Below, piece after piece: positions 11,696 to 29,967 of a stretch of DNA of 64,000 bases (the stretch's first letter is position 1; every line of letters starts with the position of its first letter). The notes under the pieces were generated by a model that saw nothing but the letters and a program-made list of their open reading frames with translations, ran no database searches and was not told where the DNA came from. A program made the position numbers and the translations under genes. This DNA comes from Dehalococcoidales bacterium (GTDB lineage Bacteria; Chloroflexota; Dehalococcoidia; Dehalococcoidales; RBG-16-60-22): the NCBI GenBank assembly GCA_034429595.1, contig DAOUGB010000089.1, positions 1,260 through 65,259 of the forward strand, in the 5' to 3' direction.

Positions 11696-11770
11696 CGCGG
11701 GGTAGAGCAGTGGTAGCTCGTCGGGCTCATAACCCGGAGGCCGTTGGTTCGAATCCAACCCCCGCTACCA
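11696..11770 (+). tRNA. Initiator tRNA-fMet (anticodon CAT at 11728-11730), CCA encoded
   Basis: CGCGGGG acceptor arm with a C1:U72 mismatch. The GGG/CCC run in the anticodon stem (TCGGGCTCATAACCCGA-like) is present. Near-identical in layout to E. coli tRNA-fMet, with a GGTTCGAATCC T-arm. Confidence 0.9.
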
Positions 11771-11921
11771 ATGAATTTGGGTAACTAGATTACCACAGGT
11801 TAAATCCCCCAAAATAAACCACCTTAAAATGCACCTTCTTCACTTGTTTATGGCAATAGTGTTACCCTAACCATCATCTACGACTAAAATACTGGCATCG
11901 CCTGGGATATTTCCCTTTTCG

Positions 11922-14600
11922 TTACCATTTACCCCATGAGAAGAGCCTGGGGAAAAGATATTTGCGTACTTCTTCCAGCAAAAACAGGCTTAGCCCCGCG
12001 CCGAAAATGATTCCCCAGTCTCTCAACCCTATCGGGGCGGTATGGAACGCTGTTTGGAGGAACGGCACGTAGACAATGGCTACCTGCAATAAAGCTACCA
12101 GGGCAATCGAGAATATGAGTATCTTGTTTTTGAAAAATCCCAGCTTGAAAACGGAGTGTTCATCCGAGCGGGCGTTGAACGCCATACACCAGACGAACGT
12201 ATTCAGCGCACAGAAGGTCATGGTTTCAGCCGCTTCAAGACTCATGCGAGGTTCCGCCCAGCGGAATATGAGGAATGTTCCTATACCAATGAAAAGCGAT
12301 ATCACGACAATTCTCATTATCAAGCCCGGGTAGAGCAGGCCTGAACCCGGCCGGCGCGGGGGTTTATTTAATTCGTCACCTACCTTGGGTTCAAAACCCA
12401 GGGGTATATCGCCGGCTGTATCCGTCGCCAGGTTCACCCATAAAATCTGCACCGCTACCAACGGGGATTGCCCCATGAAAAGGACGCTTAAAATCAGTAC
12501 CATCAGCTCGCCGATGTTGGTACTAAGCATGTAAAAAAGCACGTTCCGCAGGCGGTTGAAAATAGCCCGGCCTTCGTCTACAGCCGCCACCACCGATGCG
12601 AAATTATCGTCCGCCAGGACCATATTACTGGCCTCTTTGGCGACATCCGTGCCTGTAATTCCCATGGCTATACCGATATCGGCTGATTTCAGGGCCGGGG
12701 CATCATTAACGCCGTCCCCGGTCATGGCGACTACATGCCCCCGTTGCTTGAAAGCATTGACGATTCTTAATTTGTGCAGCGGCTCGATGCGGGCGAATAC
12801 CGAGACGTCTTCAATTGTTCCGGTTAAATCGCCATCACTCATTTGCTCCAGTTCCGCCCCGGTGACGGATTTACCCGGAGGCAACTCCAGCTGGCGGGCA
12901 ATCGATTCTGCCGTCGCCTTATTATCACCGGTAATCATGACCACTTTAATGCCGGCCTGTTTGCATTGCCTGATGGCGGCTTTGGCTTCCTCCCGGGGGG
13001 GGTCTTCCATCCCCGCCAGCCCCGCAAAAACCAGCCCGTTTTGTAAAACATCTTGGTTCAACCTGCCGGCACCAGGCGGTAATTCCATGTAGGCCAGGGC
13101 GATGACGCGTAAAGCATCATTTGCCATCTCATTAGCCGCCGACACTATCTTTTGGAAATCAGCCGGTTGGAGAGGGACTGTTTGCCCGTCGTTGCGCCAA
13201 TACTTACTTAAGCGCAGGATTTTTTCGACTGACCCTTTCATACAGGCTAAATGCTTCCCGTTTTCATTGTGCAGCGTTACCATGTACTGGTTTTCGCTTT
13301 CAAACGGGATTTCATCTATCCTGGGGGAGGTGTTCTCAAGCTGGTCTTTGGTGATATCGGCCTTACCGGCGACTACTACCAGGGCGCCCTCGGTGGGGTC
13401 GCCGATAATACCCTCTCCGTTCGCAGACGTTAAGCGGGAATCATTGCATAGCGCCCCGATTTTCAGGATAAGCGTTAGTTGCTCCATATCTTCCCGTGTT
13501 AAAGGCTGGTTATCCTTAAGGAATTTACCTCTGGGTTCATAGCCTTCTCCGGTTACTTGGATAAAACCGCTTCCGTTAAAGAGCCGCCGTACTGTCATCT
13601 GGTTAAGGGTTAAAGTACCGGTTTTATCGGAACATATCACCGTTGCCGATCCCAGGGTCTCTACGGCGAGCAACTTCCGCACGATGGCATTGCGGCGCGC
13701 CATCGCCCGCATGCCGATGGAGAGCACCACCGTCAATACGGCCGGCAGCCCCTCCGGTATGGCGGAAACCGCCGCCGCTATCCCTACCATGAAGATATCC
13801 ATCCACGTCATTCCCTTGAGAAGGCCGATGATGACAAGGAGCGCGACAGCCCCCAGGAAGATAAATACCAGGTAACGGCTTAGCTGGCTGACGTTTTTCT
13901 GCAGAGGCGTGGCTTCCGGTTTAACCTCCTGAATACCCCTGGCAATCTTTCCCATCTCCGTGGACATTCCGGTTTTGACCACCAGCGAGATAGCACGGCC
14001 ATTGGTAACGGTAGTCCCCATGAAAACCATGTTTGCGCGGTCGGCAATCGGCGCGTCACCGGCGATTGCCGAAACATCCTTCTCCACCGGCATGGATTCA
14101 CCGGTAAGGGTAGATTCGTTTATTTTCAAATTAGAGGCTTCTATTAGCCTGGCGTCGGCGGGGATTTTGTCGCCGGCCTCCAGCTGGATGATATCTCCGG
14201 GCACCAGTTCGCCGGCCGGTTTGACCTTGATACCGTTATCGCGCTTTACCTTAGCTTTAGGTGAAGCCAGTTCCAGCAACGCCTGCATGGATTTTTCAGC
14301 CTGGGTTTCCTGGAAATAACCTATCGCGGCATTGAGTATCAGGATACCCAAAATCACCAAGGCATCCGTGTAATGCCCGACCAGAAAGGATATTATCGCG
14401 GCAATCGCCAAAACGTAAATCAGGGGACTCATGAATTGTTTGAGGAACACGATGACAGGGGAAGCTTTCTTTTTAGTCTCTAATTCATTGCGCCCATATT
14501 CCATAAGCCTCCGGTTGGCTGCCTCTTCGGTCAAACCGGAGGGTTTTGACTCCAGTCCTTGCAAGGCTTCATCAATACCAAGGCTATGAAAATTATCCAT
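11922..14600 (-). CDS. Cation-translocating P-type ATPase (P2-type, Ca2+-ATPase-like)
   Basis: 892 aa. Has TGES, the DKTGTLT phosphorylation site and MTGDGVNDAPAL, with multiple TM segments at both ends. Confidence 0.9.
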   Translation of the reverse strand: MDNFHSLGIDEALQGLESKPSGLTEEAANRRLMEYGRNELETKKKASPVIVFLKQFMSPLIYVLAIAAIISFLVGHYTDALVILGILILNAAIGYFQETQAEKSMQALLELASPKAKVKRDNGIKVKPAGELVPGDIIQLEAGDKIPADARLIEASNLKINESTLTGESMPVEKDVSAIAGDAPIADRANMVFMGTTVTNGRAISLVVKTGMSTEMGKIARGIQEVKPEATPLQKNVSQLSRYLVFIFLGAVALLVIIGLLKGMTWMDIFMVGIAAAVSAIPEGLPAVLTVVLSIGMRAMARRNAIVRKLLAVETLGSATVICSDKTGTLTLNQMTVRRLFNGSGFIQVTGEGYEPRGKFLKDNQPLTREDMEQLTLILKIGALCNDSRLTSANGEGIIGDPTEGALVVVAGKADITKDQLENTSPRIDEIPFESENQYMVTLHNENGKHLACMKGSVEKILRLSKYWRNDGQTVPLQPADFQKIVSAANEMANDALRVIALAYMELPPGAGRLNQDVLQNGLVFAGLAGMEDPPREEAKAAIRQCKQAGIKVVMITGDNKATAESIARQLELPPGKSVTGAELEQMSDGDLTGTIEDVSVFARIEPLHKLRIVNAFKQRGHVVAMTGDGVNDAPALKSADIGIAMGITGTDVAKEASNMVLADDNFASVVAAVDEGRAIFNRLRNVLFYMLSTNIGELMVLILSVLFMGQSPLVAVQILWVNLATDTAGDIPLGFEPKVGDELNKPPRRPGSGLLYPGLIMRIVVISLFIGIGTFLIFRWAEPRMSLEAAETMTFCALNTFVWCMAFNARSDEHSVFKLGFFKNKILIFSIALVALLQVAIVYVPFLQTAFHTAPIGLRDWGIIFGAGLSLFLLEEVRKYLFPRLFSWGKW

Positions 14601-14697
14601 TAGCTTATTTCCTTTTTAAAACCGGCTGTAAGCCATAACAGCGTGGTTATCTATCTGTTATATTTAGTCTATTTTACACCGGCATAATTCCATAAAA

Positions 14698-15810
14698 TCA
14701 AATTTCCCCGCTTGCCTTTGGTTTTTCAGTTTGCTTTACGAACAGTAGTATCACGGAAGCGATTAAGGCCAGCGCCAGGCCGTAGATGAATGTCGCTTCC
14801 GGGCTTATCTTGTCCCAGAGCAATCCGGCTATATAGCCGCCGGGTAAGGCCACCAGCCCTATGGCGGTATGGAACGTTCCGATGGCGGTCGCCTTTAAAT
14901 CTTTCGGGGCGAAATCAGCCACGAAAGCCCTTTGCACGCCGTCGAACATGGCGAAAGATATGCCGTAGATGGCGAAAAACGGCAGGATGCCGGCAAGGTC
15001 CGAGGTGTATACCAGTCCCAGAGAGACGATAGCGAATATCAGGTAGCTGGCCATTAAAACCGGTTTTCTGCCGAGCTTATCCGAGAGCATTCCCGCCGGG
15101 ATGGAGGCGATAACATAGACGGCATAGAAAAACACGTAAAGGAGAATGGCCTGTTCGTCCGCCAGCCCGATATTTTTAGCGCGCAGCAGCATGAAGGCGT
15201 AGCCGAAATGCCCCAGGTAAAAGACCGAGGCGGCGGCAATCAGCAGTTTTAAATTATGGGGCAGCGCCCGGAAGCTTATCCGGATGGATGCCTTCTGCCC
15301 CGGCTGTTCAGGTTCTATGGTCTTTTTCTCCCTGACGAATAAGATGCATAATACCGCGATAACGCCGGGAACCGCCGAGAGGAGAAAAATATTTGTGTAA
15401 CCTATCAGCGGCAACAGGGCAAATCCCAGCAGTGCCCCGATGACCGAGCCGATGCCGTCCATCGCCCGGTGGAATCCATAGGCCTTGCCGCGGTAACATC
15501 CCTCTACAGATTCAGCGACGATGGCATCTTTAGGGGCGGTTCTCAACCCTTTGCCGATTCTCTCTACCGAACGGAACAGCACCACCAGCGGCCAGGTATT
15601 GGCCAGGGCGAACAGCGGCTTGGTCACCGTGGAAAAGCCGTAGCCCAGCAGGACGAAAGGTTTCCGTTTCCTGGTTTTATCCGACAGATACCCGGATACG
15701 ACTTTTAACAGGGATGAGACTGTTTCGGCAAAGCCCTCGCAAATGCCGACCGCCGAGGCTCCGGAGTTCAGAACGGTAACCATGTACAGGGGAATCAGGG
15801 GGAAGACCAT
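14698..15810 (-). CDS. MFS transporter
   Basis: About 12 hydrophobic segments and MFS-like loop motifs. The ATG at 15810 probably falls inside TM1: the frame stays open to 15885 but holds no ATG/GTG/TTG, so the real start is uncertain. Confidence 0.75.
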   Translation of the reverse strand: MVFPLIPLYMVTVLNSGASAVGICEGFAETVSSLLKVVSGYLSDKTRKRKPFVLLGYGFSTVTKPLFALANTWPLVVLFRSVERIGKGLRTAPKDAIVAESVEGCYRGKAYGFHRAMDGIGSVIGALLGFALLPLIGYTNIFLLSAVPGVIAVLCILFVREKKTIEPEQPGQKASIRISFRALPHNLKLLIAAASVFYLGHFGYAFMLLRAKNIGLADEQAILLYVFFYAVYVIASIPAGMLSDKLGRKPVLMASYLIFAIVSLGLVYTSDLAGILPFFAIYGISFAMFDGVQRAFVADFAPKDLKATAIGTFHTAIGLVALPGGYIAGLLWDKISPEATFIYGLALALIASVILLFVKQTEKPKASGEI

Positions 15811-15953
15811 CTGGGCGCCGACATCGGTAAACAGGCTGACCAGCCCTAAAACGAATACATTTCTCGTAATCCCTTTAAAAATAGCGGTTTTAGTGTCTTG
15901 CTTAATCGCCGTATCCCCCCGTATTTACTTTGTATTTTTCTTGTTCCGCTAGA

Positions 15954-16817
15954 TTATTTCCCGTTGTAGAAAGCCACGCCAACCAACCCGGGGCCGGTAT
16001 GAGCCCCCATGACCGGCGTGAACTCGGTAACCATTAGCTCGGCGCAGTCGAATGAGGAGGAAATCCGGTTTTTAAGTTCTGCGGCTTTCTCCGGCTCGGC
16101 GGCGTGCATCACTGCCACGTGCAGAGGTAACCCCTTGTCCACCCTGTTTTTCATCATTTCCATCATACGCTTCATAGCGCCCAGATAGGTCCGGGCCCTG
16201 CTCGCCGGATAGGCCTCGCCGTCTTTCAATGTAATGATAGGCTTGATATTAAGCAGCGACCCCGCCCAGGCAACTACCTTAGGGACGCGCCCGCCTCTGG
16301 CCAGGTATTGTAACGTGTCTACTATCGCCAGAAGATGAACGTGCCCCATTACATTTTTGGCGGCGTTTATTACTTCCGTTATCCCTTTGCCCATAGCAGT
16401 AACTTTAGCAGCGGCCAGAACGACGAATCCCTGCGCCGCCGCCGCTGTCTGGCTATCCAGCACCTCTACGGCGACATTTGGAAGCACATCCCCGGCCATT
16501 TTAGCGGCCAGCTTGGCTGAGTTGAAGGTACTGCTGAGCTTGCTGGAGAGGGTGATACACAGAATGCTCGTTGCTTCCCGGCTCATTTCGCGGAAGGCAT
16601 TGAGAAAATGCTCCGGGGATGGGGCCGCGGTGGTAGGGAGTTGTTTGGCTTCTTTAAGCAGGGAATAGAATTCCTCGGCTTTTAAATCTACCCTGTCTTG
16701 ATAAACTTTGTCTCCGAAGATAATCCTTATCGGCACTTCGCGTATGTTATATCTGTTTATCTCTTCTTCGGGGATACAGCCGATGGTGTCAGTAACGATA
16801 GCGACCTTTCTTTTCAT
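15954..16817 (-). CDS. DegV family fatty-acid-binding protein (FakB-like), paralog 1
   Basis: MKRKVAIVTDT..., PTTAAPSP and GRVPK motifs are typical of DegV. Start chosen at ATG 16817 rather than the track start 16871. Confidence 0.85.
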   Translation of the reverse strand: MKRKVAIVTDTIGCIPEEEINRYNIREVPIRIIFGDKVYQDRVDLKAEEFYSLLKEAKQLPTTAAPSPEHFLNAFREMSREATSILCITLSSKLSSTFNSAKLAAKMAGDVLPNVAVEVLDSQTAAAAQGFVVLAAAKVTAMGKGITEVINAAKNVMGHVHLLAIVDTLQYLARGGRVPKVVAWAGSLLNIKPIITLKDGEAYPASRARTYLGAMKRMMEMMKNRVDKGLPLHVAVMHAAEPEKAAELKNRISSSFDCAELMVTEFTPVMGAHTGPGLVGVAFYNGK

Positions 16818-16909
16818 AAATTGCGAAGCCTCCATGATTTTATGAGAACCCAAATGGCACCTGCAAGTCATCAGCGATTGCTCTTCAGCTATTTCACGCT
16901 GCTGAATCC

Positions 16910-17095
16910 TTAAACTTCAATTGAAACATCATATAACCATGATGCTTCGGCTTCTTTTACGGTTTTTACTTCATCCAATGGGACTGTGTAGCCGCAGAGG
17001 AAACAGTGCTCGCACCAGCCTGCCGGGTCATCATAATCAAGATAGACATTTTTACCGCCGCATTTCCGGCAAAATTTCCCTTTGATTATATCCAT
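16910..17095 (-). CDS. Small zinc-ribbon protein (CxxC...CxxC)
   Basis: 61 aa, with CRKCGG ... CEHCFLCG. GGAGG lies upstream. Confidence 0.55.
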   Translation of the reverse strand: MDIIKGKFCRKCGGKNVYLDYDDPAGWCEHCFLCGYTVPLDEVKTVKEAEASWLYDVSIEV

Positions 17096-17199
17096 AGCTA
17101 CCTCCGATATGACTTAAATCTACAGAGTCATTCAGCCTTTTTGCTATATAGTATTTATTGTTCTAATCATTTCCTTGCCAGAAATATTCTACATCATAT

Positions 17200-17227
17200 T
17201 TGATTATGTTACAACATATGTTATAAT
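17200..17227 (+). promoter_or_regulatory. Sigma-70-like promoter (TTGATT-N16-TATAAT) with embedded TATGTT-AC-AACATA palindrome
   Basis: Hexamers at 17200-17205 and 17222-17227, about 33 nt upstream of GTG 17260. Confidence 0.45.
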
Positions 17228-17259
17228 AACAACAGTTGCTATGAAAGGAGAGGTAGAAC

Positions 17260-18054
17260 GTGACGGCTGAAGATAAACGAAGCTGGTTCATCATCATCTA
17301 CAAAATATCGGCCAAGCCATCCACCGCCAGGGTTACTGCCTGGAAAAAAGTAAGGGAATTGGGCTCTCTGCCACTGCAACAATCGGTCTATATTCTTCCT
17401 AAATTGCCAAAATTGAAGGTTGCCTTGAATCGTCTCCAGGAACAAATCCAGCAATTAGGAGGCGAATGCAAGGTCCTTGAGATTGAAGCCTTTGAAGCTA
17501 TTCAGGAAAAGGAAACTATTGCTGAATTCAACAGTTTAAGAAACCAGGAATACAAAGAGATTGCCGAGGAAAGTGCGAAGCTTGTCCTGGAGATAGACCG
17601 TGAAGCTAAAGCCGGTAAGTATAACTTCGCCGAGTCGGAAGATACTGAAAAAAGATTCCTGAAGCTTAAAGAATGGTTTGAGGCGACCAATGGGCGGGAC
17701 TTTTTTGGAGCAGACTTTAAGGGTGAAGCTAATAAAGCCATTAAAGAGTGTAAAAGTGTCGTTGATGCTTTTAACCGGGAGGTTTTTTCCCGTGAGCAAG
17801 CCTCTGAAAAAGATAAGACTCTCGGTATCTCCTTGGTTGTGCCGTTAAAACCGAGCCAAACGGAGATTGAAAAGCAGTTTTATACCAAGGAAGAGCTATT
17901 AGCCAGGTTTAAGGATTTTGTCTCAAATCTGGAGAATAATATCTTGAAGATTGGCAATGAGGAAATAAGTATTATTCCGGAATCTACCATTATGGAACTG
18001 AAATACAAAACTCGCCGGGGTAAAAATTCTATCATTATTGAAATAGAGTATTAG
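17260..18054 (+). CDS. ChrB N-terminal-domain-like protein
   Basis: N-terminus SWFIIIYKISAKPSTARVTAWKKVRELGSLPLQQSVYILP matches the ChrB_N pattern (W..L.Y.LP.EPS.ARV..WR.L...GA). GTG start after AAAGGAGAGG. The gene is AT-rich. Confidence 0.55.
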   Translation: MTAEDKRSWFIIIYKISAKPSTARVTAWKKVRELGSLPLQQSVYILPKLPKLKVALNRLQEQIQQLGGECKVLEIEAFEAIQEKETIAEFNSLRNQEYKEIAEESAKLVLEIDREAKAGKYNFAESEDTEKRFLKLKEWFEATNGRDFFGADFKGEANKAIKECKSVVDAFNREVFSREQASEKDKTLGISLVVPLKPSQTEIEKQFYTKEELLARFKDFVSNLENNILKIGNEEISIIPESTIMELKYKTRRGKNSIIIEIEY

Positions 18055-18089
18055 TGCTCCCAGTCAGTTTGCTGCCGAGGTGATAAACT

Positions 18090-18947
18090 ATGCAAAAAGT
18101 AGCAGTGGTTGTCAGCAGTGCCGTTTCCCTGCCGGAAGAGCTAATCAAGACTTACGGCATCCGTTTGGTGCCGGAGAAAATTATTATTGAAAATAAGGTC
18201 TATCAGGACCGCGTTGATATTACTCCCCGCGAATTTTATCCCATCCTTGAAAAGTCTGAAAATATTCCCACCACTTCCGCTCCCACCACTCATGATTTCG
18301 CCGATGCCTTCACGGAAACCGCCGAAACAGCCAGCGCCATTGTATGTATCACCGTGACCAAAGGATTCAGTCAGATGGAATTTCAGTCGGCGCTCGCGGC
18401 CAGTAAAGATTTTTCCAAGATTCCCACGGTTGTCATCGATTCGCGGGCGGCTCCCGGAGCCTACGGCTTCGTTGCCTTAGCGGCGGCCAAAGCCGCCGCC
18501 GCCGGTGGCGACATCGACGAAGTGAGAGCCGCGGCGGAAGATATGCAACAGCGTGTTACCATGCTGTTTACGCTGGATACCCTGAAATATCTGGCTAAGG
18601 GAGGGCGTATCGGCAAGGCCGCTTTGTGGGCGAGCAGCCTGCTTAGTATCAAACCGATAATGGAAATTCCCACTACTACCGGGGCTATCGAGCCGTTGGA
18701 AAGGGTCAGAACCAGGGAAAAATCCCTGACACGGCTCCTGGAAATCATGAAGGCGAAAACAGCTAAGAATGGCTCCGTGCACGTCATCATCGACCAGGCG
18801 AATGTCCCGGGTGAGGCTCATGAGTTTCAAAAGCGTTTGGCCTCCCGCTTCGACTGCGCGGAAATTTATGTGAATGACTGGCCGCTGGTAGCCGCGGTCC
18901 ACTGCGGGCCGGGTGCTATGGGCGTTTCCTTTTACACCGGGGAATAG
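18090..18947 (+). CDS. DegV family fatty-acid-binding protein (FakB-like), paralog 2
   Basis: 285 aa, with typical DegV blocks (PTTSAPT, LAKGGRIGKA). Confidence 0.85.
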   Translation: MQKVAVVVSSAVSLPEELIKTYGIRLVPEKIIIENKVYQDRVDITPREFYPILEKSENIPTTSAPTTHDFADAFTETAETASAIVCITVTKGFSQMEFQSALAASKDFSKIPTVVIDSRAAPGAYGFVALAAAKAAAAGGDIDEVRAAAEDMQQRVTMLFTLDTLKYLAKGGRIGKAALWASSLLSIKPIMEIPTTTGAIEPLERVRTREKSLTRLLEIMKAKTAKNGSVHVIIDQANVPGEAHEFQKRLASRFDCAEIYVNDWPLVAAVHCGPGAMGVSFYTGE

Positions 18948-18972
18948 TCAATAATATTACGGATATCCGGGG

Positions 18973-19596
18973 GTGACCATGGAAATTCAGTCTTTGTTGG
19001 TGATATTACTGGGTTATTTATTAGGTTCCGTATCCTGGGCTTATATCATCGGGCGCCTGTTCGGTAAATTCGATGTCAGGGAAGCCGGTGACGGCCATAT
19101 CAGCGCTGCCTCCCTGCATAAACGGCTAGGCCTCCCAGCGACTATGTTGTCAGGCTGTCTGGATTTTTGCATGGGAGTCCTGGCAGTTGTCATCGCCAGA
19201 GCGCTGAATGAATCTCAAATGGTAGTCATGCTTGCCGGATTTGCTGCCATGCTCGGTCACAACTGGTCGCTCTTCCTGAAATTCCAGGGAGGCCAGGGAG
19301 CCTCGATAATCCAGGGGGTGCTTGCCGTCATGGTATTGCGGCCGTTCATCATCGGCGGTCTCTTAGCACTGGTATCACAACGCTTTATAAAGAAAACCGG
19401 CGTCAGCACCATAGTCTGGGTTGCCAGCGTCACCCTCATTCTGCTGATACAAAATCTCCTTGGACATGAAAGCTATTCAATGCTTTTCATTGTCTATCCG
19501 CTCCTTCTCCTCCTGCCGATGGGACTGAAACGCTTCCAGATAAGTCATATGTCCCTGAACAGTTACGTGACATCGCACCTCCAGCACCCTTCCTAA
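18973..19596 (+). CDS. PlsY (glycerol-3-phosphate acyltransferase) family membrane protein, divergent
   Basis: Aligns along its length with PlsY (LLGYLLGS, REAGDGHISAAS vs GSGN.GATN, GHNWSLFLKFQGGQGAS vs GH.FP.F..FKGGKG.AT). Several signature residues are replaced. The start could instead be ATG 18979. Confidence 0.6.
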   Translation: MTMEIQSLLVILLGYLLGSVSWAYIIGRLFGKFDVREAGDGHISAASLHKRLGLPATMLSGCLDFCMGVLAVVIARALNESQMVVMLAGFAAMLGHNWSLFLKFQGGQGASIIQGVLAVMVLRPFIIGGLLALVSQRFIKKTGVSTIVWVASVTLILLIQNLLGHESYSMLFIVYPLLLLLPMGLKRFQISHMSLNSYVTSHLQHPS

Positions 19597-19649
19597 AATT
19601 AAACCCGTCAGGCGCGTAGCATCGCCCGGCACCGCGGAGGACACCGGAT

Positions 19650-20384
19650 TTGAAACAAATCGAAGAAGACGCGCTCCGAAAGGAGCGCTGGCCGCATCGC
19701 CTGTACCGTAAGATTATCAATGATACCGGAGAGCGCGTCGAGCACATGGCGGAATCCCCGGCGAAACCGGTCCATTGGTATGACCGTAAAATCCTGCTGG
19801 GTGTTCTGGCACTCCTGCTCACCATAGCTATATGTATCGCGGCGCTTTACTACCAGGACACCTTAACGAACACCAAGTATGTTCAAAATCTGGGTTTATT
19901 CGGCATCTTTGTCATTTCCTTCGTCGCTACGATTACCAGTGTAGCTTTTGTTCCGGTGCCTTACTGGGCGTTCGTGATAACCGTGCCGGTCTTGCTCGCC
20001 AAGCAATGGGGTATCTTATCTCCTATCCTGGTTGGAGGTGCCGCCGCCATTGGCGCCACCTTAGGGTGTTTCCCTATCTTTATGGTCGGCTACGGCGGGC
20101 GGGAAGTATTTCAGAAGATGATGGAAAAACGTGATTCTCCACCGGGTAAAAGAGAATATCGCATCTTCGCCTGGGCAAAACGCCATATGACGTGGGCAGT
20201 CTTCCTCCAGTCTGCCATCCCCAACCCCCTGTACGTACCCATAACTGTCGCCATCGGCACCACGCGCTACCCGCCGCTTAAGTTCGTCCTTGTGTCATTA
20301 ATCGGCAATGTGGTTAAGGGTTGCTTTCTGGCCTTCAGTGGATATTTCGGCCTGGAATTCGTGAGAAACTGGCTCGGTGTTTAA
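19650..20384 (+). CDS. DedA/VTT-domain-like membrane protein
   Basis: Polytopic membrane protein whose pattern resembles YqaA/DedA (FVATITSVAFVPVPYW). The start is uncertain (TTG 19650 or ATG 19746). Confidence 0.45.
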   Translation: MKQIEEDALRKERWPHRLYRKIINDTGERVEHMAESPAKPVHWYDRKILLGVLALLLTIAICIAALYYQDTLTNTKYVQNLGLFGIFVISFVATITSVAFVPVPYWAFVITVPVLLAKQWGILSPILVGGAAAIGATLGCFPIFMVGYGGREVFQKMMEKRDSPPGKREYRIFAWAKRHMTWAVFLQSAIPNPLYVPITVAIGTTRYPPLKFVLVSLIGNVVKGCFLAFSGYFGLEFVRNWLGV

Positions 20385-20412
20385 GCCTAACTTCCGGTAC
20401 CCGTTTTTCAAA

Positions 20413-20525
20413 AAAGGATGTTATCTCAAATTTGGGAAATACTATCTTAAAGATCGGCAATGAAGAAACAAGCATTATATCGTAATCTACATACATCAAT
20501 CACAGGTATCATTGAAACTCACTTC
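20413..20525 (+). pseudogene. Remnant of the 3' end of a second ChrB_N-like gene
   Basis: About 110 nt align by eye with 17910-18030, the 3' end of CDS 17260..18054 (AAGGATGTTATCTCAAATTTGGGAAATACTATCTTAAAGATCGGCAATGAAGAAACAAGCATTAT vs AAGGATTTTGTCTCAAATCTGGAGAATAATATCTTGAAGATTGGCAATGAGGAAATAAGTATTAT). Translation ILKIGNEETSIIS* is interrupted by stops. Confidence 0.6.
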
Positions 20526-20715
20526 TCTGGAACTACAAGGCCGGCTGTTAACAATTGGTGTTCCTTTCATTACTATATTCTGGATAATTAGACCACATCA
20601 GTCAGTAGGCCCGCACAGGACTAAGGTAGATGAACATAACCAAGATTCTTGCATATCATTGAGTATGAAAAGTATGTTATATTATATATAACACACATTT
20701 CAGAAGGAGATTGCG

Positions 20716-20979
20716 ATGACGTTCGGAATTACGGAAAACGCTCCAAAGTTCTATGGTTCGGTAACGGTGGGTGAACGCGGTCAGGTGGTTGTTCCGGCAA
20801 AAGCCCGGCATGAACTCGATATTATACCTTCAACAAATCTGTTGGTTTTTAGTATCCCTAATGCCAAGGGTATTGCTATGGTGAAGGTTGAAGTTATGTC
20901 CGAATTCCTGAAAGTATTTGGCAATGCGGTACATAATCTGGAGCAGGTATTAAAAGAGGGTTCCACGGAAGGAACCTAA
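20716..20979 (+). CDS. AbrB/MazE/SpoVT-family DNA-binding protein
   Basis: GSVTVGERGQVVVPAKARHEL is a SpoVT-AbrB swapped-hairpin motif. GAAGGAG RBS. Confidence 0.7.
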   Translation: MTFGITENAPKFYGSVTVGERGQVVVPAKARHELDIIPSTNLLVFSIPNAKGIAMVKVEVMSEFLKVFGNAVHNLEQVLKEGSTEGT

Positions 20980-21196
20980 ACCAAACAATAGTCATTCTGA
21001 AGCGGGAGTTGACTTCGGTATAGTTCTGCTGCTTATCAGATGGGAATGGTTTTCTGAAGCGCCATCCGAAACGGTTCTTTGATACAACGAACCAAAAACT
21101 GCTTAGTTTATCCTGCACAGTCAGGCTGTGTATGTTGAAGAATCGCCCCAAGACTATGGCCGGGACATAATCAAAAATATCCAGAGGTGATAATTA

Positions 21197-21601
21197 ATGA
21201 GAGAGCGATTAATCAGAATGATGTACGGGCGTAACGGTATGGATGAACTCTCGCGGTTTCTATGCATTGCCGCCTTCATTCTTCTTCTCATAGCAATATT
21301 TGTGCCGGGAACTTTTAGTCTGATAATCTGGTTGCTGGCACTCGGCTTACTTATCTGGGCATATATACGGATATTCTCCAGGAATATTTATAAACGGCAG
21401 GCGGAAAACGCGAAGTATATAGAAACAAAGAGTCATATCATAAACGTTTTGCGCAATAAAACGCAGCAATTCAAAATGCGGAAGGAGTACCGCTTCTTCA
21501 AATGCCCCGGCTGTAAAGTCACGGTCCGGATACCGAAGGGCAAAGGCAAAATAATTATTACTTGCCCCCGGTGCCGAACAAGTTTCAATGGGGAGAGTTG
21601 A
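21197..21601 (+). CDS. Membrane protein with C-terminal zinc ribbon
   Basis: Two TM helices, then CPGCKV...CPRCRTSF. AGAGGTG RBS. First gene of the Hsp70 module. Confidence 0.65.
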   Translation: MRERLIRMMYGRNGMDELSRFLCIAAFILLLIAIFVPGTFSLIIWLLALGLLIWAYIRIFSRNIYKRQAENAKYIETKSHIINVLRNKTQQFKMRKEYRFFKCPGCKVTVRIPKGKGKIIITCPRCRTSFNGES

Positions 21602-21609
21602 GCGAATCA

Positions 21610-22449
21610 ATGTTCGGTTTTATCGTAGCTAACAAAGAAGCTCTGACGGAGCAGCAGCTGGAGCGCTACAGGGGATGCTACTGCGGTCTGTGCAAGGCAT
21701 TGGATCAGCGTCATGGTTTGATAGGAAAGATGACGCTGAATTACGATATGACCTTTCTGGTGCTGCTGCTATCCTCGCTGTACGAACCGCAGGACAGCAG
21801 CGGCCGGGGCCGGTGCGCTATTCACCCTAAACAACGGCTTGGTTTTTGGCAGAACAAATTCACTGATTACGCCGCGGATATGAACATCGCTTTGAGCTAT
21901 TACAAGTGCATCGATGACTGGCGTGACGAACGCCGGCTGCTCCGGCTGGGCTACGCCAGGCTGCTCAAGCCCCGCTATAAAAAGGCTATGTTACAATACC
22001 CCCGCCAGTGCCGGTGTATCGAGGAATGTTTTACAAAGATAGCCGAGATTGAGAAAAACGGGTGCACGCTCCCGGATGCGGCGCCGAACTGTTTCGGTCA
22101 ATTGATGGGGTGCCTGCTTGCGTACTACGAGGATGATCACTGGACAGAAACACTGGAGCGTACCGGCATGGCCCTGGGAAAATTCATTTATGCTATGGAT
22201 GCCTGTCTTGACCTGAAATCGGACAAAAAGCACGGGCGGTATAATCCGCTTTTTTCCTATACAGCGGCTGATAGGGACAGCGACTTTTATGAGTTACTGA
22301 CCATGCTGGCCGGTGACTGCACCCTTGAATTTGAAAAGCTGCCCCTGGTGCAGGATATAGATATCATGCGTAACATCCTGTATTCCGGCGTGTGGCAAAA
22401 ATACCAGATAGCAGCCCGAAAAACCGCTAAAAGTGGTGATAAAAAATGA
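21610..22449 (+). CDS. Cys-rich hypothetical protein (possibly DUF5685-like)
   Basis: MFGFIVANKEALTEQQLERYRGCYCGLCKAL resembles, from memory, proteins found next to accessory Hsp70/J-protein pairs in Firmicutes. Needs an HMM check. The track ORF starts earlier, at 21562. Confidence 0.5.
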   Translation: MFGFIVANKEALTEQQLERYRGCYCGLCKALDQRHGLIGKMTLNYDMTFLVLLLSSLYEPQDSSGRGRCAIHPKQRLGFWQNKFTDYAADMNIALSYYKCIDDWRDERRLLRLGYARLLKPRYKKAMLQYPRQCRCIEECFTKIAEIEKNGCTLPDAAPNCFGQLMGCLLAYYEDDHWTETLERTGMALGKFIYAMDACLDLKSDKKHGRYNPLFSYTAADRDSDFYELLTMLAGDCTLEFEKLPLVQDIDIMRNILYSGVWQKYQIAARKTAKSGDKK

Positions 22450-23129
22450 TTGATGATCCATACAAAGTACTTGGGGTTCCACCCAATGCGTCCGATGCTG
22501 AAATCAAAGCGGCCTACCGGCGGCTGGTAAAAAAGTATCATCCGGATTTAAACCCCGGTAATGTTGAAGCTGCCGAAAAGATGAAGGAGTTAAATGCTGC
22601 CTATGACCAGATAAAAAACCCGCAGAAGAACTCCGGCCAAGCAGGGACCGGCCAGAGCCAGGGCTATCAGGATTACCAGGGCCGCGCCAACGGTTATGAC
22701 GACCCGTTCGGATTCGGCGGGTTCGGCGGATACCAGCGGCAGCAACAATCACGGTATTCCGGGCAGGAAGCAGCGGAATTTCTGGCGGCAGAGCATTTTA
22801 TACAGGCAAACCAGTTCCAGAGCGCCTTGCATGTGCTGTCGGAAGTGGCTGAAGGAAAACGCAACGGAAGATGGTATTACCTTAGTGCGCTGGCAAATTA
22901 CGGCGAAGGCAATACTATCCTTGCTTCCGACCATATCCGGCACGCCATCCGGCTGGAGCCGAATAACCTTGAATACCAGCAGTCTTTTAATATGATGCAA
23001 AACGGGGGACGCGTTTACCAGCAGACCGGCAGCGGCTTTCCCCCGGTATCCATAAGCCCGTCGCTGATTTGCCTGGGCTGTTGCCTGTCACAGCTATTAT
23101 GCCAATTCTGCCCATTTTTATCACATTAA
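22446..23129 (+). CDS. J-domain protein with TPR-like middle region and Cys-rich hydrophobic tail
   Basis: DPYKVLGV...YRRLVKKYHPDLNPGN (the HPD motif). Overlaps the upstream stop by 4 nt. C-terminus is LICLGCCLSQLLCQFCPF. Confidence 0.85.
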   Translation: MIDDPYKVLGVPPNASDAEIKAAYRRLVKKYHPDLNPGNVEAAEKMKELNAAYDQIKNPQKNSGQAGTGQSQGYQDYQGRANGYDDPFGFGGFGGYQRQQQSRYSGQEAAEFLAAEHFIQANQFQSALHVLSEVAEGKRNGRWYYLSALANYGEGNTILASDHIRHAIRLEPNNLEYQQSFNMMQNGGRVYQQTGSGFPPVSISPSLICLGCCLSQLLCQFCPFLSH

Positions 23130-23175
23130 AAGGCTGAATATCTGAAAATATTCTGTAATTGGAGGGAATTGTACG

Positions 23176-24918
23176 ATGTCAAGAATCATCGGGATAGATT
23201 TAGGGACAACTTATTCCTGCGTCGCTGTCGTCGAGTTCGGTAAAGCAGTGGTCATTCCCAACGCCGAGGGCGAAAAAACAACGCCGTCCGTCGTTGCCTT
23301 TACTAAAAACGGGGAGCGACTGGTAGGCCAGATGGCCAAGCGGCAAGCTGTTATCAATCCTGACCGTACCATCATCTCTATTAAGCGTGAAATGGGTACG
23401 GATTACAAGAAGAAAATAGACGGCAAGCAATATTCTCCGCAGGAGATATCCGCCATGATATTGCAAAAGCTGAAGACCGATGCCGAAAACTATCTGGGCG
23501 AGGCTGTCACTTCTGCCGTGATTACCGTTCCCGCCTACTTTACCGATGCCCAGCGCCAGGCCACCAAGGATGCCGGGATAATTGCCGGGCTGGATGTGCA
23601 ACGTATCATCAATGAGCCTACCGCAGCCGCTTTAGCTTACGGGATAGGCAGTGAACAGGCGCAAAAGATTATGGTCTATGACCTTGGCGGCGGGACCTTC
23701 GATGTTTCGATTCTCGATATAAACAGCGGTGTCATCGAAGTCCTGGCCACCGCCGGGAACAACCGTTTGGGCGGTGATGATTTTGACCAGTGCATCGCGG
23801 ATTATCTGGTAAAGGAATTTAAGAGGGAGACGCGCATTGACCTTACCAACAATGCCGCGGCCATGCAGAGAGTCCGGGAGGCGGCGGAAAAGGCCAAGAT
23901 TGAGCTATCCGGCGTTACCTCGGCCAACATAAATCTGACCTTTATCGCCGGCGATAAGGACGGCCCGAAGCATATGGATATCACGCTTACCAGGGCCAAA
24001 TTCAACGAGCTTACCCGCCACCTTGTGGAAAAAACCATGGCACCGGTGCGCCAGGCAATAAGCGATTCCGGCCTTGCCGTATCTGATATTTCAAAGGTGC
24101 TCCTGGTTGGCGGCTCCAGCCGTATTCCGGCGGTGCAGGAGTCAGTGAAGCAAATTACCGGGAGAGAGCCATTTAAGGGAATAAACCCCGACGAGTGTGT
24201 AGCTATGGGAGCTTCTTTGCAGGGGGGTGTGCTGGCTGGCGGTGTTAAAAGCCTGGTGCTTCTGGATGTGACACCCTTATCGCTGGGTATCGAGACCATG
24301 GGGGGTATCTTTACCAAGATGATTGACCGCAACTCCACACTGCCTATTATGAAAAGCCAGATATACACGACGGCGGCTCACTTCCAATCATCAGTGGATG
24401 TACACGTCCTCCAGGGCGAGCGTGAAATAGCCGCATACAATAAAACTCTCGGGAAATTCCGGCTTGGCGGCATACGCCGCGCCCCGCGGGGCGTGCCGCA
24501 AATTGAAGTGACGTTTTCAATAGATGTAAACGGTATCGTGAATGTCTCGGCCAAGGATTTAGGGACTGGCAAGCAGCAGCAAATCACCATTACCGCATCA
24601 TCCAATATGAGCCAGGAAGATATTAACAAGGCTGTTCGAGAGGCACAGCAATACGCTGCCGAGGACATGCGGCAAAAGAAAGAGACCACCGCTAAAGATA
24701 ACCTTGAGAGGCTTATTTATCAAGCCGAGAGTATAAAGAAAAAACTGGCGAAAGACGATAAAAGCAAACTTGAAGAAGTCCTGTCCAGGGCTAAAAAAGC
24801 GTTAAAAAGCAAGGACAGCCAGGCTATTCTAGCTGTATCCGATGATTTGGAACTCTTATTGTCATCCGTGGGGCAATACGATTCGCAGAATGACGCTTCC
24901 GGTTCCGGCTCTAAATAA
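23176..24918 (+). CDS. Hsp70-family chaperone, short (580 aa) non-canonical DnaK paralog
   Basis: Has [35 protein letters not shown] and a full substrate-binding domain. There is no grpE or canonical dnaJ nearby. Confidence 0.9.
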
Positions 24919-25164
24919 AAAATTTGATAACGCCGTTCATGGCATCCGGCATAGCCAGAAGCAGCTTTCCCTCACTGAAGGTTTGCTCAAAGGTTCTGGT
25001 TCTGCGTATGGTAAAGTATCGCCCTCTTTACAGGAATCGAGCCAAGACAAATATCCCATATCATAGAGGGGATGCAAGAATTTGGTGCAACGCCGGGATA
25101 AGCTCTTTTTTCTCGAATAAAAGTTCGGAATCCTTCCAATGCGGGCTACCAATTTTAGAAGCTA

Positions 25165-25210
25165 AAATCCCTCGAAATCATAAAACGGTTTCGGGGGATT
25201 TTTCATTTTT
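25165..25210 (+). terminator. Rho-independent terminator
   Basis: 13-bp stem AAATCCCTCGAAA / TTTCGGGGGATTT with an 11-nt loop, followed by TTTCATTTTT. Confidence 0.6.
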
Positions 25211-25278
25211 GCTAACAAATTGCTAACCAAATAATGAAGGTAACTATCCCCTCAGAACACGTAGGAGGCTAGAGTAGA

Positions 25279-25476
25279 ATGAGCAATAGAGACAAGGTAA
25301 TATTGGATTTATGTGAAGGCACCGGAGCGTGGTCACAAGATTACGCCGCAGCAGGATATGACCGACGTATTATCACATTACCTAAATTTGATGTGAGAGA
25401 CTACTCACCACCGGCGAATGTTTATGGAATATTGGCCGCACCGCCCTGTACAGAATTTACTGCGTATTGCCTATGA
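25279..25476 (+). pseudogene. N-terminal fragment of a DNA (cytosine-5) methyltransferase-like gene
   Basis: ILDLCEGTGAWS resembles motif I (DLF.G.GG) and ILAAPPCTEFT resembles motif IV (GPPCQ.FS). The ORF stops after 65 aa, so the remaining motifs are missing. Confidence 0.5.
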
Positions 25477-25542
25477 AGGCGCAAAAGGGAAATTAGTCTT
25501 TATCCCAGATGATTAGAATTTGTCCCACTCGGACAAAAACTC

Positions 25543-25572
25543 TTGACAAACACGAATGGATGTGCTGATAAT
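25543..25572 (+). promoter_or_regulatory. Sigma-70-like promoter (TTGACA-N18-GATAAT)
   Basis: Hexamers at 25543-25548 and 25567-25572. Followed by hairpin CCCGCCG-ATATAAA-CGGCGGG plus T6 (25591-25617), directly before the tRNA-like gene. Confidence 0.4.
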
Positions 25573-25622
25573 CATGGGTAATAGAGTGTGCCCGCCGATA
25601 TAAACGGCGGGTTTTTTATTGG

Positions 25623-25698
25623 CGCAGGGAGGACAAGTGCTAAGTCTGCCGGTCTCATAAGCCGTGCGAAGCGGGTTCGATTCCCGCCCCTGCTACCA
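25623..25698 (+). tRNA. Atypical tRNA-like gene with CAU anticodon (Met/Ile2-type), possibly a pseudo-tRNA
   Basis: 76 nt with a good T-arm (GCGGGTTCGATTCCCGC), an acceptor stem with a C1:U72 mismatch, a CTCATAA anticodon loop and an encoded CCA. However, the D-arm is irregular (GGAC/GTCT stem shifted by 1 nt, no GG in the D-loop) and 27:43 is a C-U mismatch. Confidence 0.55.
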
Positions 25699-25752
25699 CG
25701 TTAATTAGCTCTCGGAAGTGGGGGACGAACGTAGGATAGTTCCCAATTTAAA

Positions 25753-25792
25753 GGGGTAAATTCGCGTATATTCGCGAATTTACCCCTTTTTT
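25753..25792 (+). terminator. Rho-independent terminator
   Basis: Perfect 14-bp stem GGGGTAAATTCGCG / CGCGAATTTACCCC with loop TATATT, followed by T6. Confidence 0.75.
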
Positions 25793-25869
25793 GTACCCAA
25801 ATTCAGGGCAGTATCTGGTTCATTTTCAGGTCTGCCCTTTTTTATATCCTGATTTTTAAGAGGTGAAGT

Positions 25870-26190
25870 ATGAGACGAGGTAGAAAAAAGTACAACAATT
25901 TTTGGAGCTTAGTTTTTAGTATGGTGTTTTATCTAGTAATAAGTATTATCTTATATATATTCGTGAAAGAGTTTGGTCTATGGGCAGCTTTATCCATTAC
26001 GGTAATTAGCTATCCGCACATGGTTCTTTTTCTCGCAACAATTCTACGCATGCGCGGTGATATTACAGAAAGAAGTTTCATCAACTTGGTTTTAGAAGGA
26101 TTAAAAATTATCAAACTACTACAAAAAACCCAAACTGGTCTAACAAACATCAAGCTAAATATCTCTTCAAACAAATTCAAGAAATCATAA
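25870..26190 (+). CDS. Hypothetical small membrane protein (AT-rich)
   Basis: 106-aa ORF with AGAGGTG RBS and 2-3 hydrophobic helices. I recognise no family. Confidence 0.35.
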   Translation: MRRGRKKYNNFWSLVFSMVFYLVISIILYIFVKEFGLWAALSITVISYPHMVLFLATILRMRGDITERSFINLVLEGLKIIKLLQKTQTGLTNIKLNISSNKFKKS

Positions 26191-26206
26191 CTATAGCAAC
26201 ACAATG

Positions 26207-26320
26207 CTATTTCCTCGCTAGTTCCTTCTTACTAAACCCTCCCACAATCATTTCGTCAAACCCTTTCGCAGCTGCTTCTTGAAGTCCTGGGGTTACATGG
26301 CTGTAGGTGTCAAGAGTTAT
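26207..26320 (-). pseudogene. 3'-terminal remnant of a tyrosine recombinase (phage-type integrase) gene
   Basis: The minus-strand frame reads ITLDTYSHVTPGLQEAAAKGFDEMIVGGFSKKELARK*. This is the classic integrase C-terminus containing the catalytic Tyr (..TLDTYSHV.PG.QE.AA..). Everything N-terminal of it is missing. Confidence 0.65.
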
Positions 26321-26330
26321 CTCTTTTCCC

Positions 26331-27806: not shown

Positions 27807-27887
27807 GTTACCTCCCACGGCGTATATTGATTAAAGTGTAGGGATTTGGAGGCGGGAAGTCAATATGAACGAATTATTAGTAAATAT

Positions 27888-27916
27888 TTGACACAATATT
27901 AAAGTAGTAATATACT
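27888..27916 (+). promoter_or_regulatory. Sigma-70-like promoter (TTGACA-N17-TATACT) overlapped by direct repeats TAGTAATATA x2
   Basis: Hexamers at 27888-27893 and 27911-27916. The 10-mer repeats lie at 27905-27914 and 27921-27930. The leader before ATG 27934 would be very short. Confidence 0.5.
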
Positions 27917-27933
27917 ACAATAGTAATATAGTA

Positions 27934-28209
27934 ATGCCGAGTTTATTGATGATAATTGCCCGAACCGAGAATTTTAAAAAGGCCTGGCATAATTTAACGG
28001 TTGAGCTAAAATCTTTAGCTCGTAAAGCGATTAATAATCTGATGATAGATATGCACTATCCGGCTCTAAGAGTAAAAAAGATACAAGGCGTAAATAAAAT
28101 ATGGGAAGCCAGAGTCAGCCGGTCGCTCCGGATGACCTTTCAGCTTGAAGGTGATACGATCATTCTGCGGAATATAGGGCAGCATGATGAAACATTAGAG
28201 CGACCTTAG
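27934..28209 (+). CDS. RelE/ParE-superfamily type II toxin
   Basis: 91 aa. KIWEARVSRSLRMTFQLEGDTIILRNIGQHDE matches the RelE/ParE C-terminal pattern (..W.lRv....Ri.y.....i.l...g.H..). Confidence 0.7.
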   Translation: MPSLLMIIARTENFKKAWHNLTVELKSLARKAINNLMIDMHYPALRVKKIQGVNKIWEARVSRSLRMTFQLEGDTIILRNIGQHDETLERP

Positions 28210-28221
28210 GAGATAGAGGAA

Positions 28222-28494
28222 ATGGCGACATACAGCAAAGTAACAAGACACGGACAAATCACTTTACCGTCCCAGGTACGTAAAAGCTTAGATATAGAAG
28301 AGGGTGACCTGATAGAAATTAAAGTAATAGATGAACAAGCCGTACTTGTTCCTAAGAAACTGGTTGATAAAAGTCAGGCGTATTTCTGGACTAAAAAATG
28401 GCAAGAGGGCGAAAAAGCCGCGGATGAAGATATCAAAGCCGGGCGTGTTAAGTCCTTTAAATCTGCCGATGAGCTGATTGAGGATTTAGAGTAA
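28222..28494 (+). CDS. AbrB/MazE-family antitoxin
   Basis: VTRHGQITLPSQVRKSLDIEEGDLIEI is a SpoVT-AbrB domain. Starts 12 nt after the toxin stop. Confidence 0.7.
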   Translation: MATYSKVTRHGQITLPSQVRKSLDIEEGDLIEIKVIDEQAVLVPKKLVDKSQAYFWTKKWQEGEKAADEDIKAGRVKSFKSADELIEDLE

Positions 28495-28522
28495 GGCATC
28501 CCTAACACCAATTTTTGAAGAT

Positions 28523-29965: not shown

Positions 29966-29967
29966 AT

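Follow-up and report, generated by a model that had tools for sequence, protein, structure and literature searches.

The 64,000-nucleotide stretch of DNA analysed here, referred to below as the window, derives from contig DAOUGB010000089.1 (positions 1,260 to 65,259) of a Dehalococcoidales bacterium of the phylum Chloroflexota (GCA_034429595.1), whose genome is a metagenome-assembled genome of 163 contigs, 94% complete and with 5.06% estimated contamination. On the forward strand of the window, between positions 20716 and 24918, lie five closely spaced genes that encode, in this order, a small AbrB-like protein, a membrane protein with a zinc ribbon, a cysteine-rich protein of the DUF5685 family, a J-domain protein and an Hsp70. 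The last four had been singled out by an initial annotation, made from the sequence alone, as a specialised Hsp70 module, and the coordinates, common strand and tight packing that it gave agree with the list of open reading frames (ORFs) of the window. Specifically, the zinc-ribbon and DUF5685 genes are separated by just 8 nucleotides; the stop codon of the latter overlaps the start codon of the J-protein gene in the sequence ATGA, which suggests translational coupling of the two; and the 46 nucleotides between the J-protein and Hsp70 genes contain a GGAGGG Shine-Dalgarno sequence. As also noted at that stage, neither grpE nor a gene for a classical DnaJ with the DnaJ_C domains is found among the genes of the module.

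The most constant feature of the module is the association between DUF5685 and the J-protein. Two samples of loci were compared, the first composed of 85 DUF5685 loci that were ranked by similarity to the query and hence lean towards Oscillospiraceae, the second drawn from 30 Clostridia genomes with flanks of only ±1.5 kb. The J-protein gene lies directly downstream of DUF5685 in 85/85 loci of the first sample and in 27/30 of the second (112/115 together). The zinc-ribbon gene adjoins the pair in 63 of the 85 loci and in 3 of the 30, and an Hsp70 gene in about 13 and in 1, respectively. The position of the accompanying genes also varies, since the zinc-ribbon gene is mostly found upstream of the pair and, in Clostridium-type loci, after the J-protein gene, while the Hsp70 occurs in two gene orders, namely ribbon-DUF-J-Hsp70, as in the window, and Hsp70-DUF-J-ribbon. 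Clustering of all flanking ORFs of the 85 loci revealed no other recurrent neighbour beyond the four genes. Moreover, in Anaerofilum hominis and in a Dehalobacter, where the pair has no Hsp70 beside it, a single DnaK is encoded by each genome, and the genomes with a module-adjacent Hsp70 also retain the canonical DnaK. Since the J-protein is near-constant, the other two adjacencies are partial and some carriers possess a lone DnaK, the functional core is the DUF5685-J pair, with the zinc-ribbon protein and above all the Hsp70 as accessory components. The co-conservation of all four genes that had been anticipated consequently stands for the pair and does not extend to the other two. We infer that the pair normally works with the housekeeping DnaK and that a dedicated paralogue was added in some lineages. 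The statement, in the initial annotation, that comparable gene neighbourhoods with a member of DUF5685 exist in Firmicutes was correct, as such neighbourhoods are those of the Clostridial loci just described.

The J-protein (22446..23129, 227 amino acids) belongs to class C of the J-domain proteins. In an AlphaFold2 model based on a 65-sequence alignment, residues 1-63 form the J domain, which carries the HPD motif, matches PF00226 (75.6 bits, E 3e-21) and is predicted with a local confidence score (pLDDT) above 90. It is followed by a disordered G/F-rich linker (residues 65-106), by a helical-repeat, TPR-like domain (residues 110-195, pLDDT 96-98) and by a last hydrophobic and cysteine-rich helix (residues 205-220). 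Foldseek pairs the N-terminal part with J domains and the middle one with the TPR proteins MamA, SPAG1 and FKBP5; the middle domain scores 18.2 bits against Pfam TPR_15, under the cut-off of 26.2. The TPR-like region and cysteine-rich hydrophobic tail attributed to this protein by the first reading of the sequence agree with the model. A class A or B identity (DnaJ or CbpA) was rejected: DnaJ models match the J domain and the G/F-rich linker alone, and in this genome DnaJ_C is found only on contigs C53 and C139.

The distinctive part of the protein is its C-terminal end. All five cysteines of the window protein (209, 212, 213, 219 and 222) fall within the last 19 residues, and this accumulation is a property of the family. 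In fact, each of the 82 complete homologues, all of which keep the HPD motif, has 4-10 cysteines in its last 30 residues, so that cysteine makes up 21% of the residues there and 0.35% elsewhere. The proteins end in cysteine in 61/82 cases, in CC in 36/82 and in CxC in 19/82. In the second sample the tails are of the type ...C-E-C-x-GGDLI-x-CC, acidic, strongly conserved and with a median of 8 cysteines; at the loci L147-L171 of this sample, such acidic cysteine-rich tails are usually encoded with no zinc-ribbon gene beside them. The J-protein family appears to hold at least two tail types, and the partner of DUF5685 can be classified as a cysteine-string J-protein. No description or functional study of bacterial cysteine-string or TPR J-proteins was found in the literature searched.

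The second member of the pair (21610..22449, 279 amino acids) matches PF18937 over profile positions 1-271 of 272, with 318.8 bits for a cut-off of 26.7 and an E-value of 3.9e-95, in accordance with the family name that had been suggested for the cysteine-rich protein. It contains 13 cysteines, has no transmembrane segment and would be soluble. An AlphaFold2 model based on 93 sequences (pLDDT 90, predicted TM-score 0.88) is all-alpha with one beta-hairpin. When this model was compared with the PDB by Foldseek, all of the 50 matches listed were trans-isoprenyl diphosphate synthases or related prenyltransferases, including solanesyl- and octaprenyl-diphosphate synthases, farnesyl diphosphate synthase, CrtE, MoeN5 and one UbiA-type enzyme, with full-length alignments, best TM-scores of 0.50-0.57 and a probability of about 1. 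Moreover, an alignment that includes two members just 20-21% identical leaves as invariant the residues C25-G-x-C28, D46, D102xxxD106, D197xxxD201xxxD205 and N212, with the aspartate motifs placed at the C-terminal end of helix 83-107 and of helix 179-200 of the model. Conservation of C69 and H72 does not clearly extend to the distant branch. Aspartate arrays at helix ends represent the mode by which the isoprenoid-synthase fold binds Mg2+-diphosphate. It is probable that DUF5685 is an enzyme that depends on Mg2+ and has an isoprenoid-diphosphate-synthase-like fold.

The likeness to these enzymes has definite boundaries. Prenyl synthases carry two DDxxD motifs, while DUF5685 carries one DxxxD and one DxxxDxxxD, only about 95 residues apart, together with an extra CGxC motif and a beta-hairpin; the full-length match of the predicted all-alpha fold, which extends to the group that includes MoeN5 and ComQ, is not accompanied by sequence or profile homology. 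In particular, DUF5685 matches no other Pfam family, PF00348 included, and a profile search of PDB sequences returned nothing meaningful. ComQ is a peptide prenyltransferase, that is, an example of an isoprenoid-synthase fold able to modify a peptide.

A further connection between DUF5685 and cysteine-rich tails comes from six genomes of about 6 Mb each, all from one Chloroflexota genus, in which DUF5685 continues into a P/Q-rich linker and a Cys/Asp/Glu-rich tail with 24-28 cysteines in the last 80 residues. In all six (loci L112-L117; for example L112:426-2925) the fused gene directly follows an Lgt gene and no J-protein is present. As these genomes are kin, they count as one observation, which nevertheless provides a second link between DUF5685 and a cysteine-rich tail, here through fusion and not through adjacency. 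Among the best 150 matches in a representative library, nearly all proteins are stand-alone forms of about 265-300 residues, a few reach up to 400, and no new fusions were identified.

The zinc-ribbon protein (21197..21601, 134 amino acids) displays an N-terminal M-x-GR-x-G-x-D motif, a hydrophobic stretch at residues 14-61 that corresponds to two transmembrane helices, a basic FSRN..KR..EN segment and a C-terminal CPxC...CxxC ribbon, here CPGC...CPRC, as first described. In a 32-sequence alignment of the family, G11, R12, G14, D16, R58, S61, R67, E70, N71, G117, C123 and C126 are invariant and C103, P104 and C106 are kept in at least 90% of the members. Searches of Pfam and NCBIfam gave no match above cut-off, and the family has no name.

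The fourth gene (23176..24918) encodes, as first noted and as confirmed by profile search, a 580-residue Hsp70. It has the full architecture of a nucleotide-binding domain, interdomain linker, substrate-binding domain and lid, and it passes both DnaK equivalog cut-offs (NF001413, 853.9 bits for a cut-off of 648; TIGR02350, 837.3 for 822.55). An HscA identity was rejected, as the HscA model TIGR01991 gives 551 for a cut-off of 708.55 and no isc genes lie nearby, and so was an HscC identity, E. coli HscC being set apart from the DnaK-type group by a very long branch of its own. Nor does the protein fill the housekeeping role. The search for a canonical set elsewhere in the genome, which the initial annotation had proposed, located adjacent grpE and dnaK genes on contig C20, with the only GrpE of the genome, and two dnaJ genes with DnaJ_C on contigs C53 and C139; the tree, moreover, places the module copy away from the host DnaK. 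The latter is 88-94% identical to proteins named "Dehalococcoidales bacterium", which settles the lineage of the host. It is also characterised by an unusually long N-terminal insert, longer than that of E. coli (contig C20, 7835-9634), which makes the contrast with the Firmicutes-type Hsp70 of the module very clear.

In a maximum-likelihood tree, ten DUF5685-adjacent Hsp70s form one clade with a support of 100/100, sister to the canonical DnaKs of Oscillospiraceae with a weaker support of 93/64. Outside this clade fall the host DnaK, the canonical DnaKs of the same Clostridial genomes, and E. coli DnaK, HscA and HscC, the last two with branches as long as 2.78 and 6.89 changes per column, respectively. 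Match scores of the module Hsp70 are 660 bits against the host DnaK, 850-913 against Clostridial DUF5685-adjacent Hsp70s and 1083 against the copy on a related metagenome contig described below. In the alignment, it carries the Firmicutes-type deletion of about 25-29 amino acids in the N-terminal domain that is common to Clostridial DnaKs, the host DnaK being of the long form, and, like most of its clade, it has no acidic C-terminal tail motif; these two features account for its shortness. Near the substrate-binding arch, the NTTIPTKKSQIFSTAxxNQ of Clostridial canonical DnaKs is replaced by NTTLPIKKSQIFTTAxxFQ in the module clade. By these sequence characters the protein is a Firmicutes-type DnaK paralogue, present in addition to the housekeeping copy. 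The opposite outcome, a sole Hsp70 that groups with housekeeping DnaK, had been named in advance as fatal to the idea of a specialised Hsp70 with a dedicated J-protein, and that idea is instead supported by the separate clade.

The distribution of DUF5685 points to the source of the module. The family is large, with more than 7,700 clusters at 90% identity in one search and about 6,000 at 50% in another, of a representative library, and its named matches are overwhelmingly Oscillospiraceae and other Clostridia, many carriers being gut Oscillospiraceae and Lachnospiraceae. Among 300 genomes of the class to which Anaerofilum belongs, 169 (56%) encode it, mostly in single copy. No DUF5685 was found among 40 relatives of the host (17 of the same genus, 7 of the same family and 16 of the same order), and of 400 other genomes of the phylum only 6 encode it, all of one distant genus, at about 100 bits and in the different, fused architecture. 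From these counts and from the deletion and scores of the Firmicutes-type Hsp70, a transfer of the module from Clostridia into this Dehalococcoidales lineage is supported, in line with the horizontal acquisition initially put forward. Searched against 72,556 plasmid records, DUF5685 gave 2 weak matches, both on large Oscillospiraceae replicons, and a plasmid vector is therefore not supported.

An independent metagenome contig (L008; JGI 3300005254, 1-9052) carries the same four-gene module, with 68-87% protein identity, together with an orthologous DedA-like gene (76% identity); between the two stands an ABC transporter/FtsX/MarR block in place of the AbrB-like gene. The zinc-ribbon gene of this contig had been missed by the original gene caller. 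The possibility that DedA was part of the transferred block was discarded, as its linkage to the module is seen on this contig only and not in Clostridial loci. Because this contig shares both DedA and the module with the window, and because the large genes are compositionally ameliorated, the acquisition of the module is not recent.

With respect to its surroundings, the module is part of a larger, mosaic, tRNA-linked island. The window is collinear with a nearly closed genome of the same genus (G001) on both sides, positions 1-11497 corresponding to 950.7-960.2 kb and positions 26334-40450 to 965.0-981.6 kb. Synteny breaks exactly at a forward-strand initiator-type tRNA-Met (11696..11770; ARAGORN; Rfam 66 bits), with anticodon CAT, a C1:U72 mismatch and a GGG/CCC anticodon stem, whose orthologue occupies the same syntenic place in G001, and it resumes (26334) in the gene at 26331-27818, which sets the right limit. 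By ORF-level synteny, the variable island thus spans 14.5 kb (11771..26330), where G001 has about 3.9 kb of unrelated DNA between the break points; it both adjoins a tRNA and is absent from a close relative, two of the properties by which tRNA-linked islands are recognised. The insert had first been delimited at 20385-25210, bounds that cannot be kept, since the unit missing from relatives is the whole 14.5 kb from the tRNA-fMet to the gene at 26331-27818. Besides the module and debris of mobile elements, the island contains, according to Pfam, a P-type ATPase, an MFS transporter, two DegV proteins, ChrB_N, a PlsY-like acyltransferase and DedA/VTT. Just upstream of the module, the same-strand genes at 17260-20384 (ChrB_N, DegV, PlsY-like acyltransferase and DedA/VTT) all have to do with lipids or membranes. 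Where the AT-rich stretch has its left edge, immediately past the DedA-like gene, the fossil 3' end of a second ChrB_N-like gene (20410..20500, forward strand) aligns to 17910-18030, with a mean column identity of 77% over the full 189-column alignment.

As for base composition, windowed GC content falls to 0.40-0.44 over 20100-21600 and to 0.39-0.45 over 24600-26400, and the small AbrB-like and zinc-ribbon genes have values of 0.44-0.45. The DUF5685, J-protein and Hsp70 genes have a GC content of 0.51-0.52, and of 0.58-0.62 at third codon positions, like other genes of the island; core genes of the flanks are slightly higher, at 0.57 and 0.70-0.72, respectively. Consequently, the description of the module as an AT-rich insert is valid for its edges and small genes, whereas the three large genes have the composition typical of the island.

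Both ends of the module show additional features. Upstream, the AbrB/SpoVT-like protein of 87 amino acids (20716..20979, forward strand), preceded by a good Shine-Dalgarno sequence, scores 27.2 bits against TIGR01439, just under the cut-off of 28.3. In 5 Oscillospiraceae-type loci a MazE/AbrB-like relative precedes the module in divergent orientation. The gene of the window is a possible regulator whose membership of the module is uncertain. Downstream, about 250 nucleotides past the Hsp70 stop codon, a consensus scan detected a terminator-like hairpin of 16 pairs followed by a T-run (25164..25202, forward strand). A 65-codon forward-strand fragment (25279..25476), read by eye as resembling the N-terminus of a C5 DNA methyltransferase (motif I and PPC motif, with no Pfam match), is probably a mobile-element remnant. 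The tRNA-like region reported in the initial annotation exists, at positions that are now set at 25623..25695: it is a degenerate, forward-strand tRNA-fMet-like gene with anticodon CAT, C1:U72 and a following CCA, which scores 36.2 bits with RF00005 (gathering score 29), shares about 70% identity with the tRNA at 11696, has an odd D-arm and is not called by ARAGORN. It is preceded by a strong promoter-like site (25543-25572) and by a T-run hairpin, and no counterpart was found in G001. This sequence is a candidate for the right border of the island, whose far end has a full-length degenerate tRNA-fMet-like copy and not a short repeat of the tRNA 3' end. A direct-repeat search across the island found short, chance-level repeats and no clean att-type repeat, and no integrase was seen among the ORFs and Pfam matches of the window. 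Further on, a 106-codon ORF (25870-26190) for a small hydrophobic protein with no Pfam match is, with a GC content of 0.32, the most AT-rich gene-like stretch of the area by a wide margin.

Known chaperone systems offer several terms of comparison. Canonical bacterial DnaK shares with the module Hsp70 the domain order from the nucleotide-binding domain to the lid and the passing of the DnaK cut-offs; the module protein differs in being placed away from grpE and dnaJ, in its separate clade, in its missing acidic tail motif and in the altered segment near the substrate-binding arch. HscA-HscB and HscC-DjlC/DjlB of E. coli resemble the module in that an Hsp70 paralogue stands beside its own class C J-protein, apart from grpE-dnaK-dnaJ, and in each case a single narrow task is presumed. 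The module Hsp70, however, is of the DnaK type, above the DnaK and below the HscA cut-offs, and HscA and HscC fall outside its clade; the J-protein combines a TPR-like domain with a cysteine tail and lacks an HscB C-domain; the partner is DUF5685 and not IscU; and most genomes with the DUF5685-J pair have no dedicated Hsp70. Turning to the tail, DNAJC5, that is, the cysteine-string protein (CSP-alpha), and farnesylated Ydj1/DNAJA1 are J-proteins targeted to membranes through a lipidated, cysteine-bearing segment, and the module J-protein likewise bears cysteines. In addition, the J domain of DNAJC5 is the top Foldseek match of the module J domain (49% identity, root-mean-square deviation 1.3 A), with Ydj1 closely next. 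Nonetheless, the string of CSP is central and palmitoylated by DHHC enzymes, whereas that of the module protein is C-terminal, in company with a TPR-like domain, and its lipidation is hypothetical; Ydj1 is a class A protein with a CaaX box and, like CSP, is eukaryotic, whereas the module J-protein is bacterial and of class C. The resemblance is one of analogy, homology being apparent for the J domain alone.

Taken together, the evidence, all of it computational, inclines us, with moderate confidence, to read the locus as a horizontally acquired chaperone module derived from Clostridia, with a membrane-proximal, dedicated J/Hsp70 system and DUF5685 as its obligate partner. We infer a membrane association of the J-protein and the module from the sequence features of their products. 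Specifically, the cysteine-rich tail, possibly with the zinc-ribbon protein, would tether the J-protein to the membrane on its cytoplasmic side; the TPR-like domain would bind a specific partner, most likely DUF5685 or a product of DUF5685; and the J domain would activate the ATPase of an Hsp70. For most Clostridia this Hsp70 would be the housekeeping DnaK, and for a minority of them, as well as for the present host, the module-specific paralogue. Since the DnaK of the Dehalococcoidales host is far removed from the Firmicutes type, this host would depend on the paralogue. DUF5685 may, in turn, act on or with the cysteine-rich tail, as suggested by its constant linkage to such a tail. A more specific and rather doubtful proposal is that DUF5685 is a new bacterial protein lipid-transferase that S-prenylates or otherwise lipidates the tail of the J-protein or, in the fused form, its own tail, the product being a lipid-anchored co-chaperone. 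The fold, the aspartate motifs, the fusion and the C-terminal CC and CxC endings fit this idea.

Several observations weigh against this interpretation. All claims of interaction rest on gene adjacency, and the zinc-ribbon gene is absent beside the pair in 22/85 and 27/30 loci of the two samples. The hydropathy of the J-protein tail is borderline for a transmembrane helix (median 1.43; window protein 1.87) and the tails of Lachnospiraceae type are acidic and not hydrophobic, so that membrane anchoring is not assured. The tail encoded in the window, moreover, ends in CPFLSH and not in cysteine. As regards the enzyme, the Foldseek E-values are weak (2e-3 to 3e-2), and hhalign of DUF5685 against 22 polyprenyl synthases gave a probability of 0.1 in local mode and a meaningless 10-column match in global mode; membership of the polyprenyl synthase family by sequence is therefore rejected and only the resemblance in fold remains. 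Finally, no functional study of DUF5685, and no experiment on it, was found in the literature searched.

The main rival explanation, which we regard as improbable, is that DUF5685 is a client or scaffold, that is, a metal- or cluster-binding protein handed by the TPR-like domain to the Hsp70 in the manner of HscB/HscA/IscU, with the cysteine tail and the zinc ribbon sharing in metal or cluster handling. The 13 cysteines of DUF5685, with the invariant C25-G-x-C28, and the presence of cysteine motifs in all three non-Hsp70 proteins speak for this view, and single-client J/Hsp70 pairs such as HscB/HscA are known. However, the residues conserved up to the distant branch are mostly the aspartates of the DxxxD arrays and not cysteines, C69 and H72 are among those not clearly kept, and the fold resembles that of diphosphate-using enzymes and not that of Fe-S scaffolds. 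Moreover, the Hsp70 scores below the HscA cut-off and no Fe-S assembly genes lie nearby.

It is unlikely, to a greater degree, that the Hsp70 and the J-protein are a plain extra copy of the stress chaperones, brought in by the island, with DUF5685 and the zinc-ribbon protein as unrelated passengers. DnaK duplication is reported to be common in Chloroflexi (PMC11019930), and the Hsp70 of the module exceeds the DnaK cut-offs and retains the linker and the arrangement of domains. Such a reading is difficult to reconcile with the adjacency of DUF5685 and the J-protein in distantly related Clostridia, where the stop codon of one gene often overlaps the start codon of the other, or with the fact that the module Hsp70s form a single clade and in every case stand beside the pair, in either of two gene orders. 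In addition, the J-protein does not have the DnaJ_C client-binding domains of general DnaJ, and a search across the window found no CIRCE heat-shock operator.

It is very unlikely that the module serves anti-phage defence or was brought by a mobile island as some other kind of selfish cargo, a view to which the tRNA-linked setting, the methyltransferase debris and nearby toxin-antitoxin genes would lend some colour. This reading is set aside because a PADLOC-DB 2.0 scan of the five proteins gave zero matches; furthermore, in Clostridia the pair occurs in single copy and in ordinary chromosomal contexts in over half of the sampled genomes, and DUF5685 is near-absent from plasmids. That the module is foreign to the organism, through contamination of the fragmented assembly or a chimeric contig, is hardly credible, given that both flanks of the contig are syntenic with the same-genus genome at 50-90% protein identity, that the independent metagenome contig links the same DedA gene to the same module and that the large genes have island-typical GC.

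To return to the dedicated J/Hsp70 module that we favour, its interest lies first in the scarcity of comparable systems. To our knowledge, few dedicated bacterial Hsp70/J pairs are known (HscA/HscB and HscC/DjlC), and such pairs show how a general chaperone gets aimed at one task. The DUF5685-J pair is very widespread, as indicated by the share of sampled Clostridia that encode DUF5685, and no study of it was found in the literature searched. In addition, the passage of the module from one phylum to another together with its own Hsp70 suggests that the J-protein needs a DnaK of Firmicutes type. If the lipidation of the tail were true, a cytosolic protein of bacteria would be lipidated on cysteine endogenously and independently of the lipoprotein pathway, for which we know of no prior description. 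The cysteine-string J-protein would then be a bacterial equivalent, likewise endogenous, of farnesylated Ydj1 and of the palmitoylated cysteine-string protein, and over half of the sampled Clostridia would possess it.

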